Assembly (NCBI RefSeq): GCF_000284115.1
Contig: NC_017080.1
Coordinates: 2,430,001-2,462,000, forward strand
Length of the DNA: 32,000 nucleotides
Direction of reading: 5' to 3'
From: Phycisphaera mikurensis NBRC 102666
GTDB lineage: Bacteria; Planctomycetota; Phycisphaerae; Phycisphaerales; Phycisphaeraceae
Both the position numbers and the translations under genes were made by a program. How positions within the stretch are numbered: position 1 is the stretch's first letter; the number at the start of each line of letters is the position of its first letter. The notes below the pieces were generated by a model. The model worked only from the letters and a program-made list of their open reading frames with translations, was not told the DNA's origin and searched no databases. Shown one piece after another: positions 14,501-15,566 of this stretch.

Positions 14501-15566
14501 CAGCTACATCAAGTGCCACTATCCGGCGGCCTTCTGCTGCGCCTTGCTGAACTCGCAGCCGATGGGGTTCTACGCGCCGGCGCAGCTGATCCAGGATGCG
14601 CAGCGGCATGGGGTGGAGGTGCGCGGGGTGGACGTGCTTCGTTCGGGGTGGGCTTGTTCGTTGGAAGCGGAGACAAGCGAAGAAGCGAAGAAGCGGGGAA
14701 GCGGGGAGGCAAGCGAAGAAGCGGAGAAGCGGAGAAGCGAAGAAGTCAGCAGGGGGCGGGAAGATGCGTCCGAACGAGGCCTGCTGACTTCTTCGCTTCC
14801 GAACTTCCCCGCTTCTTCGCTCGAGCCGCGCAGCGGCTGCGTCCGCCTCGGCCTCAACCGCGTCCGCGGCCTCCGCGAGGAAGACGGCCGCAAGATCGAG
14901 GCGGCCACGTCCTCGGGTGTCCGCTTCGCCTCCATCGAGTCGCTGTGGCGGGCGGCGGGCTGCTCGGCCGCGGCGATGCGGCGGCTGGCGGCGGCGGACG
15001 CGTTCTCTTCGATGGGGCTGGACCGGCAGTCGGCCACGTGGCACGCCCGGAAGCTCCGAGACGACGACGCCCCCCTGTTCCGGCAGGCGATGGAGAGGCC
15101 TTCACGGCCGGACACGCCGCTGCCGCTCCCGGAGCTGCCGGAGCTGCGGCACGTGGTTGCCGATCACACCGCCACCGGCGTCTCGCTGCGGCCGCACGTG
15201 ATGTCCTTCCTGCGGGCGGACCTGCAGCGGGCGGGGGTCGCCACGGCGGAGAGCCTCGCCGACGGGCAGGCGTGGCCCTCGGGCAGGCGGGTCGCGGTCG
15301 CGGGCATCTGCCTGGTGCGGCAGCGGCCGGGCACGGCCAAGAGCCTCACCTTCATGACGCTCGAGGACGAGACCGGCTTCGCCAACCTCGTCGTCTGGCC
15401 CGACGTCTTCGAGGCCCACCGCCGCGTCGCGCGCCACGCGACCGCGATGCTCGTCCGCGGCCGCATCGACCGCGCCGAGTCGGTCGTGCACGTGCGGGCC
15501 GCGAGCTTCGAAACCCTCGATCACCGCCTCGCCGACCTCAAGAGCGTGTCGCGGAACTTCCACTGA
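11583..15566 (+). CDS. dnaE2: Error-prone DNA polymerase DnaE2 (ImuC), interrupted in-frame by two palindromic insertions
   Basis: PHP domain start [23 protein letters not shown]. Palm motifs [18 protein letters not shown] and [14 protein letters not shown]. Fingers motifs [46 protein letters not shown] and [13 protein letters not shown]. OB-fold tail [18 protein letters not shown]. The start is uncertain: in-frame candidates are ATG 11460, GTG 11583 and GTG 11637. Without the two inserts the length is close to a normal DnaE2. Confidence 0.9.
   Translation: [1327 protein letters not shown]
13428..13948 (+). mobile_element. IVS-like palindromic element: about 53-bp terminal inverted repeats of tandem octamers enclosing a four-helix-bundle gene
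   Basis: Hand-paired 13428..13480 against 13948..13896 with no indels, giving 45 Watson-Crick pairs, 2 G-U pairs and 6 mismatches. The left arm is (GCGAAGAA)n-GTCAG and the right arm is CTGAC-(TTCTTCGC)n. The interior has visibly lower G+C than the flanks. I found no transposase, and no target-site duplication was evident at the imprecisely defined ends, so mobility is inferred. Confidence 0.7.
13501..13899 (+). CDS. Four-helix-bundle protein (23S rRNA intervening-sequence protein family, PF05635/TIGR02436-like; Avd-like fold)
   Basis: 132 aa: ...NLIVWQRGMALCRQIYRCTQAMPSGELYGLTGQMRRASVSVPSNIAEGFGREGQKEFLRHLRIAQGSLNELATQHELA... This matches the family hallmark (W-Q, E-YGL-xQ-RRAxVSxxSNIAEG, FL-IA-GSxxEL-TQ). 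An AGGA lies 8 nt upstream of the ATG. The TGA stop lies inside the right inverted repeat. The gene is read in a different frame from dnaE2. Confidence 0.9.
   Translation: MEERPHASRSHRNLIVWQRGMALCRQIYRCTQAMPSGELYGLTGQMRRASVSVPSNIAEGFGREGQKEFLRHLRIAQGSLNELATQHELATSMDMIPSDPTTIRLIEETDLVLRGFIRSVKQSLRKTPSPSA
14664..14823 (+). mobile_element. ORF-less palindromic element (MITE-like derivative of the 13428..13948 element) inserted in-frame in dnaE2
   Basis: A stem of about 43 bp pairs 14710..14752 with 14781..14823, and has one 4-nt internal loop. The junctions GTCAGCAG / CTGCTGAC and the GCGAAGAA-type octamers are the same as in the larger element. The 28-nt loop keeps ATG-CGTCCGaACG (compare ATGgaagagCGTCCGcACG at 13501) and gcctgcTGAc (compare gccTGAc at 13894). 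An extra unpaired octamer block lies at 14664..14709. Confidence 0.65.

Follow-up and report, generated by a model that had tools for sequence, protein, structure and literature searches.

How does a long palindrome come to be read as part of a DNA polymerase? The question is raised by positions 14664-14823 of a 32,000-nt stretch of DNA from Phycisphaera mikurensis NBRC 102666 (contig NC_017080.1; the whole stretch is referred to as the window, and positions are numbered from its first letter), which lie within dnaE2, the gene for an error-prone DNA polymerase (ImuC). An earlier note, made from the letters alone, had described this segment as a palindrome whose octamers and junctions also occur in a longer element further upstream in dnaE2, and had read it as a second copy of that element without the open reading frame (ORF). 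Both descriptions hold: the sequence, arms, and fold are as stated, and the arms, junctions, and start and stop remnants of the ORF are homologous to those of the upstream element. The full cassette consists of a PF05635 four-helix-bundle (4HB; S23p-like) gene enclosed by two inverted arrays of 8-nt repeats, and 14664-14823 is probably a miniature of it: a gene-less, internal-deletion derivative of a stem-loop cassette of the intervening sequence (IVS) type, translated as an extra loop of DnaE2. It is a new variant of two known types of element, the rRNA IVS/S23p and the Rickettsia palindromic element (RPE). Planctomycete dnaE2 genes repeatedly host long or short cassettes at the same two sites (site 1, upstream, and site 2), and the gain, loss, and replacement of these cassettes do not track the divergence of their hosts. 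Beyond what the earlier note had proposed, the phenomenon extends across the phylum, and the long form codes in two frames.

The arms of the site-2 hairpin (14712-14753 and 14780-14821) are 42 nt each and 88% complementary, and they enclose a 26-nt loop. Folded as RNA, the region forms a hairpin of -93 kcal/mol (z=-5.9), a value equalled by 0 of 200 shuffled sequences. Dimers of the octamer GCGAAGAA (two mismatches or fewer) occur 12 times in the window, all within the two dnaE2 inserts, against an expectation of 0.02. The site-1 element, about 1.2 kb to the 5′ side in the same gene, has these octamers and the junctions GTCAGCAG and CTGCTGAC in common with the site-2 element, and pairwise comparison of the two gives 93% identity between the left arms (over 44 nt) and 89% between the right arms (over 38 nt). 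At site 1, the arms (13430-13480 and 13896-13946) are 51 nt long and 86% complementary, with a fold z score of -5.3, and the GC content of the element is 0.59 versus 0.725 in the host gene. The additional block of octamers at the 5′ end of the site-2 element, ascribed in the earlier note to arm expansion, can be described more precisely as one copy of a tandem duplication of the left arm (Tandem Repeats Finder: 14669-14739, period 36, 2.0 copies, 91%); the period is divisible by 3.

The loop of the short element links it to the gene of the long one. Its best local alignment places GGAAGA-GCGTCCGCACG (4HB codons 1-6) against GGAAGATGCGTCCGAACG, with 16 of 18 positions matching; shuffled loops scored equally in 0.15% of cases against the whole site-1 interior (P=0.0015) and in 0 of 2000 against the first 70 nt. 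A mini-ORF of seven codons (14764-14787; MRPNEAC, then a stop) comprises the loop and the junction TGA, and lies in the same +1 frame as the full 4HB gene. This mini-ORF fits what an internal deletion would leave: of the 4HB gene, the short copy retains only the stop region and ~18 nt at the start, so that about 375 nt of the ORF are gone, and the proposal that the loop joins the start of that gene to its end is borne out, its similarity being significant in shuffles. A full-length copy also exists at site 2. A metagenomic dnaE2 (L130, 3001-7587, P0027) carries near-identical full 4HB cassettes at both sites, both in frame with dnaE2 and with their 4HB genes in frame +1, and its site-2 cassette is the long form predicted by the deletion-derivative model. 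In the label 'internal-deletion, MITE-like' (miniature inverted-repeat transposable element) that had been given to the short copy, the first half is supported; the MITE label in its strict sense is not, as no transposase, target-site duplication, or dispersed family was found. Each L130 cassette has the architecture L - 4HB - L′ - loop - R, which allows its right arm two pairings, one local and one across the gene.

Both inserts are read through by the host. The open frame spans 11271-15566 (+), or 1431 codons, and is stop-free through both; the annotated start is a GTG at 11637, and the annotated 'error-prone DNA polymerase' of P. mikurensis (P0001) is a 100% match to the window frame. The site-2 insert splits this frame between ...GWACSLE and SGCVRLGLN..., adding about 50-60 residues to the DnaE2 reading and leaving the frame intact. 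The phase of dnaE2 is the same through arms and junctions (VSR; LTSSLP) at both sites, as had been claimed; since 8 and 3 are coprime, however, an octamer array encodes the same cyclic eight residues in every frame, and thus the shared phase is informative at the junctions only, where the two copies agree. Pfam domains PHP, DNA_pol3_alpha, finger, HHH_6, and OB are found in DnaE2; all five domains of Pol III alpha are intact. Aligning an insert-free homologue with Thermus Pol III alpha (2HPI) puts site 1 in the linker that follows the palm-domain helix and precedes the conserved FQ(L/I)ES motif; site 2 comes to lie ahead of the helix-hairpin-helix (HhH) motif, with a short conserved segment on either side. 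As placed by alignment rather than by coordinates, both sites are plausible surface loops of DnaE2.

Selection keeps the dnaE2 frame open through the inserts. Against an expectation of 3.5 stops, the dnaE2 frame contains none across the P. mikurensis 4HB gene. In all complete loci, the length of the site-1 insert is divisible by 3, the 4HB gene always lies in frame +1 relative to dnaE2, and the dnaE2 frame is free of stops over the 500-900 nt of the insert, while the third frame contains 5-13. Synonymous-codon shuffles of nine nested genes gave an expectation of 27.8 stops in the dnaE2 frame, against 0 observed, with the control frame behaving as expected; among 4HB genes outside dnaE2 of similar GC content, only 5 of 34 were stop-free in the corresponding frame. 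Loci reached via the 4HB gene (L126, L129, and L135) are likewise in frame and stop-free, and the loci with a split dnaE2 annotation are free of open-frame selection bias because they were found through that gene. Ribosomes presumably read through the inserts, and dnaE2 is probably functional, to judge from its sequence. The nested gene of P. mikurensis, preceded by an AGGAA Shine-Dalgarno-like motif, is named 'four helix bundle protein' (P0121) by NCBI; an exact-protein look-up returned a single match, in a 1.2-kb read assembly.

A side observation on the arms comes from locus L122, whose site-1 right arm (~12330-12365) is built on AGTTACAA; the complement of this unit contains TAA, and no frame would escape a stop if the array were perfect. 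In the one unit whose TAA would fall in the dnaE2 frame, GTAA has changed to GCCT, which suggests that selection for an open frame extends to the arms. As for other hosts, the only further gene found with a 4HB gene nested in its open frame among 80 metagenomic PF05635 loci (L131-L210) was that of L135, another dnaE2; L131 was considered and rejected, as its 4HB gene is merely upstream of an oxidoreductase gene.

Eight other dnaE2 loci were fetched (L122, L123, L125, L126, L128, L129, L130, and L135), and all eight have at site 1 a PF05635 gene with an inverted array of 8-nt repeats on either side. The octamer unit is specific to the genome (GCGAAGAA, AGTTACAA, GAGACGAA, GCGACGGA, GAGACGGA, and GGCACGAA), and the site-2 arms reuse the site-1 octamer of their own genome: GCGAAGAA in P. 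mikurensis, AGTTACAR in L122, GCGACGGA in the right arm of L125, and GGCACGAA in L130. Site-2 inserts are in frame in P. mikurensis, L122, L125, L130, and L135, and form hairpins wherever they are present, in five of five loci (z -3.2 to -9.2). The nested genes do not follow their hosts: the identity between 4HB proteins hardly correlates with that between the DnaE2 proteins (380 insert-free residues flanking site 1; Spearman 0.11), and between P. mikurensis and L122 the host core is 94% identical, the 4HB protein 55%, and the arms wholly different. Because 4HB identity is uncoupled from host identity, the cassettes must be replaced at a fixed site. Annotation of the NCBI genomes L126, L128, and L129 splits dnaE2 at the cassette although the frame is open throughout: the 4HB gene and a fragment of the C-terminal part are called, the N-terminal part is not. 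L122 additionally carries an intergenic hairpin (14078-14222) directly 3′ of the dnaE2 stop, with octamers GGCACGGA and TCCGTGCC, unlike the in-gene AGTTACAA.

Occupancy of the two sites was followed in 119 aligned DnaE2 homologues, mostly from Planctomycetota. Site 1 holds an insert of at least 100 aa in 51 of them; site 2, proposed in the earlier note to be a variable loop, holds one of at least 25 aa in 45 (at least 100 aa in two) and none in many others. Many homologues have neither insert, some of these being nearer to P. mikurensis than insert carriers are. The site-2 peptide is not conserved as protein sequence among homologues, but most of these peptides show the two-arm pattern left by translation of a hairpin (e.g., RHEGTEARRHEG...PSCLRASVPS). 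Site-1 occupancy is near random on a tree built by neighbour joining from 997 core columns, requiring 34 parsimony changes versus 38.6 with shuffled labels, and site 2 requires 27 versus 33; occupancy of the two sites is correlated (odds ratio 5.25, P=7e-5). The tree changes and the mismatch between 4HB and host identity together describe a sporadic distribution at odds with vertical descent, as in IVSs. Further insertion hot spots of DnaE2 were seen at the N-terminus (31 proteins) and at P. mikurensis positions 78 (12), 310 (10), and 1148 (24), and periodic hairpin-type peptides occur in several of the inserts at these four.

To our knowledge, IVS elements and S23p/4HB genes have been known for 30 years solely as curiosities of rRNA genes, their function and mode of spread not being known, and a search of the literature on PF05635, S23p, planctomycete palindromic repeats, and STRR (short tandemly repeated repetitive) DNA found no such cassette in protein-coding genes. 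The IVS in helix 45 of Coxiella burnetii 23S rRNA is 428 nt long; its terminal stem measures 28 bp, and the loop carries an ORF for S23p (PF05635). The number of its tandem heptamer repeats varies, RNase III excises it, and in one strain its ORF has a 176-bp deletion (PMC4990558). PF05635 ORFs are also present in rRNA insertions of bacteria of the candidate phyla radiation (PMC11270868). The dnaE2 cassettes resemble the rRNA IVSs of Coxiella and Leptospira in their stem-forming terminal inverted repeats, the PF05635 ORF in the loop, variable short tandem repeats by the ORF, a sporadic, transfer-like distribution, and ORF-deleted variants. The site-2 element of P. mikurensis has the long stem of terminal inverted repeats; its loop, however, holds the seven-codon remnant instead of a PF05635 ORF, which is present at site 1 and at site 2 of L130. 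The dnaE2 cassettes differ from rRNA IVSs in that the host is the coding sequence of dnaE2 and not the helix of an rRNA gene, that the host frame is open and the 4HB gene is thus overprinted, and that the arms consist wholly of 8-nt repeats; RNase III excision is a conjecture here.

RPEs are short palindromes translated in frame inside host proteins, in a manner compatible with function (PMC10969869). The short element shares with them its character as a palindromic in-frame insert of ~100-150 bp that keeps the host ORF open. RPEs, in contrast, exist in dozens of copies dispersed over unrelated genes, without a long, gene-bearing form, whereas the dnaE2 copies are concentrated in one gene at sites fixed across the phylum, are derived from a 4HB cassette, and bear no sequence relation to RPEs. 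The likeness to MITEs lies in a short ORF-less derivative of an ORF-bearing element, bounded by inverted repeats; the long form, however, encodes PF05635 only and not a transposase. The STRR heptamers of heterocystous cyanobacteria are reportedly inserted in structured RNA genes (Vioque 1997, as cited in PMC2858038), and such tandem 7-nt repeats extending the helices of those genes recall the repeat-array arms of PF05635 loci. STRRs are described as intergenic or RNA-gene repeats and not as in-frame protein inserts; by analogy, the two may nevertheless be linked.

Repeat arms are found well beyond dnaE2. Inverted arms of tandem 7-nt (mostly) or 8-nt repeats flank the gene in 45 of the 80 metagenomic PF05635 loci, as compared with 2 of 265 control windows (56% versus 0.8%), with the repeat unit specific to each element, which suggests that such arms are a general hallmark of the PF05635 gene family. 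A scan of genome contigs with a four-unit TTCNYCNC pattern gave at least 120 loci in many phyla; among the matches listed, Phycisphaerales, Gemmatimonadales, Acidobacteriota, Bacteroidales, Chloroflexota, and cyanobacteria are common. Approximately 18 of the matches listed (L002-L121) have an inverted partner, nearly always upstream, and three have a detectable 4HB gene. Among those listed, L005, L072, and L099 have a dnaE-like gene within 8 kb, with ~0.7 expected.

These observations are best accommodated by the following history. A cassette of the site-1 type would have been copied into site 2, of which L130 offers an intact example, and would have undergone internal deletion, either before or after its arrival there; the left arm later gained its 36-nt in-frame duplication. 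The short element would be translated as an extra surface loop in the HhH domain of DnaE2, and its 42-bp RNA stem would serve RNase III as a substrate, in the manner of rRNA IVSs, and would also hinder ribosomes; because such a stem would be cut and would slow translation, the yield of full-length DnaE2 would presumably be lowered. The element is presumably a passenger without a function of its own rather than an adaptation, persisting because it is in frame and lies in a tolerant loop. Repeated arrival at the same sites could reflect an unrecognised homing activity, recombination via the repeat arms, or exchange of dnaE2 segments.

Several points weigh against this history. Neither a transposase nor a recombinase nor a target-site duplication was found; the boundaries, moreover, show no clear direct repeat, and the loops at empty sites are too variable to define a junction. 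Inspection of the arm mismatches for an excess of G-U pairs revealed none, and therefore selection for RNA-level pairing is not separable from an inherited DNA palindrome. Because the query used to rank the 119 homologues by similarity itself bears inserts, the sample is enriched for distant relatives that also have them. No P. mikurensis locus is among the TTCNYCNC matches listed, and a protein-word search with the translated site-2 element gave only two word-sharing candidates, neither of which scored, possibly owing to low-complexity filtering; the family may therefore not be dispersed at all in the P. mikurensis genome, although this is weak evidence against dispersed in-frame copies. Translation of the inserts and cleavage by RNase III are, finally, both argued from sequence.

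An adaptive explanation would make the hairpins selected regulators of the mutasome, that is, RNase III or ribosome-stalling switches that throttle the full-length polymerase, with the 4HB protein as an Avd-like partner made from an SOS-induced transcript. The density of octamer-array elements is indeed ~11 times as high in dnaE2 (11 in ~27 kb) as in the flanks (3 in ~83 kb), the same two sites are filled in a large share of planctomycete DnaE2 proteins, each of the nested 4HB genes comes with a Shine-Dalgarno-like motif of its own and with the conserved residues of PF05635, and the three nearest 4HB relatives on long contigs are all in dnaE2. A conserved regulatory feature should, however, be retained, and the opposite is seen: occupancy is almost random on the tree, many close relatives lack both inserts, the arms and the 4HB genes undergo replacement instead of being conserved, and 79 of the 80 more distant metagenomic 4HB genes lie outside dnaE2. 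Regulation is thus an unlikely reason for the presence of the hairpins. It is very unlikely that the site-2 hairpin is instead an old, independent insert, never a cassette, that was overwritten by gene conversion from site 1. The match between site-2 and site-1 arms in every genome examined, with octamers that differ between genomes, does require ongoing exchange between the sites, and the site-2 hairpin of L125 is chimeric (GGGACTGA in the left arm, TCCGTCGC in the right); yet a conversion that took in the opening 18 nt of the 4HB gene and its stop region but skipped the 375 nt in between would be the same event as a deletion, and L130 shows that a whole cassette can sit at site 2.

Removal of the segment on the way to the mature protein, whether as an intron, as an intein, or by ribosomal bypass, would account for a discrete insert with a nested ORF at conserved sites of a polymerase gene, and the stem would bring the two flanks together. 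Inteins and homing introns resemble the cassettes in occupying conserved sites of homologous polymerase genes in a scattered manner, in being replaced independently of the host, and in having ORF-containing and ORF-less forms and in-frame inserts; they differ in that the cassettes have no splicing motifs, endonuclease domain, or intron RNA family, and in that the nested ORF is out of frame. An Rfam scan of the window returned one tRNA only, with no rRNA and no intron RNA family, and the read-through DnaE2 protein contains no intein or homing-endonuclease Pfam domain. Removal at the RNA level would, moreover, need no open frame, whereas the frame is strongly open and the insert length a multiple of 3, which leaves this explanation scarcely credible. 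The faintest chance of all, and one already disfavoured, belongs to expansion of a coding repeat in situ by slippage, or to a decaying dnaE2 pseudogene whose frame is open as a mere consequence of 73% GC. Spurious long ORFs do abound at such a composition, and tandem-repeat arms are prone to slippage, but neither would explain the specific homology to the 4HB cassette, including the start codon region, the in-frame, stop-free state of loci found via the 4HB gene, the stops present as expected in the third frame, or the intact polymerase domains.

An IVS-type cassette and its gene-less miniature thus reside in a protein-coding gene that requires its frame to stay open. The long form is a natural case of long-term overprinting, in which ~400 nt are read in two frames and selection against stops is measurable. 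Fixed sites, scattered occupancy, and replacement form a homing-like pattern without a recognisable endonuclease or transposase, and its target is the polymerase of the SOS mutasome. As a probable general hallmark, the repeat arms turn the role and the movement of the 4HB/IVS protein into a testable question, and, as a practical matter, gene callers split or mis-annotate dnaE2 genes that bear cassettes. A bolder, and unlikely, generalisation is that PF05635 cassettes form a class of site-specific, homing-like mobile elements with genome-specific inverted arrays of 7-8 nt, one lineage of which persists through dual coding in the error-prone polymerase gene of Planctomycetota, where the 4HB protein and the hairpins, ORF-less ones included, might be functionally coupled to the SOS mutasome (e.g., through RNase III-gated production of DnaE2, or through assistance of the kind that Avd gives to the reverse transcriptase of diversity-generating retroelements).

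Features of the dnaE2 locus and of the remainder of the window, in window coordinates
Feature	Position	Strand	Description
imuB-like gene (IMS family)	9369..11204	+	Pfam IMS / IMS_C; directly 5′ of dnaE2
dnaE2 (error-prone DNA polymerase, ImuC)	11637..15566	+	1309-aa annotated product; both inserts read through
Site-1 element, long form	13428..13948	+	Inverted octamer arms around 4HB gene; between palm (PF07733) and finger (PF17657)
Nested PF05635 four-helix-bundle gene (4HB, '23S rRNA IVS protein'/S23p)	13501..13899	+	Frame +1 relative to dnaE2; Pfam E=4.9e-32
Extra left-arm block, site 2	14664..14709	+	Octamer matches; first copy of 36-nt in-frame tandem duplication
Left arm, site-2 hairpin	14710..14753	+	GCGAAGAA/GCGGAGAA octamers ending GTCAGCAG; pairs with 14780-14821
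Loop with 4HB start remnant	14754..14779	+	16/18 alignment to 4HB codons 1-6
Right arm, site-2 hairpin	14780..14823	+	CTGCTGAC, then TTCTTCGC-type octamers
Third, degenerate ORF-less element	25122..25360	+	Octamers AGACGAAG (left) and CTTCGTCT (right, 10.9 copies); keeps GCCTGACTTC junction

The order imuB-like gene, then dnaE2, is common to all related loci fetched. Three copies of the family lie within the window, two of them inside dnaE2; the third is intergenic, between an aminotransferase gene and a gene for a DinG-like helicase (both on the minus strand; named from the Pfam domains of the neighbours), and has the architecture L - spacer - L′ - loop - R with an octamer unlike that of the dnaE2 inserts. 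A role for the hairpins as intrinsic terminators was considered and rejected, as a promoter and terminator scan gave no match at the hairpins and no U-tract follows the stem on its 3′ side.

The dnaE2 codons just 5′ of the inserts have a marked GC skew (+0.59 at 13330-13430 and +0.51 at 14600-14665): the 60-100 nt 5′ of both inserts are G+T-rich despite the 73% GC of the genome, with runs of TTG and GTG codons, and the predicted site-1 stem reaches into these host codons. Elsewhere in the window, positions 8073-8137 hold a perfect 21-nt tandem repeat, GGACGGGGCCAGGCCCCGGGT, in 3.1 copies that are 100% identical.

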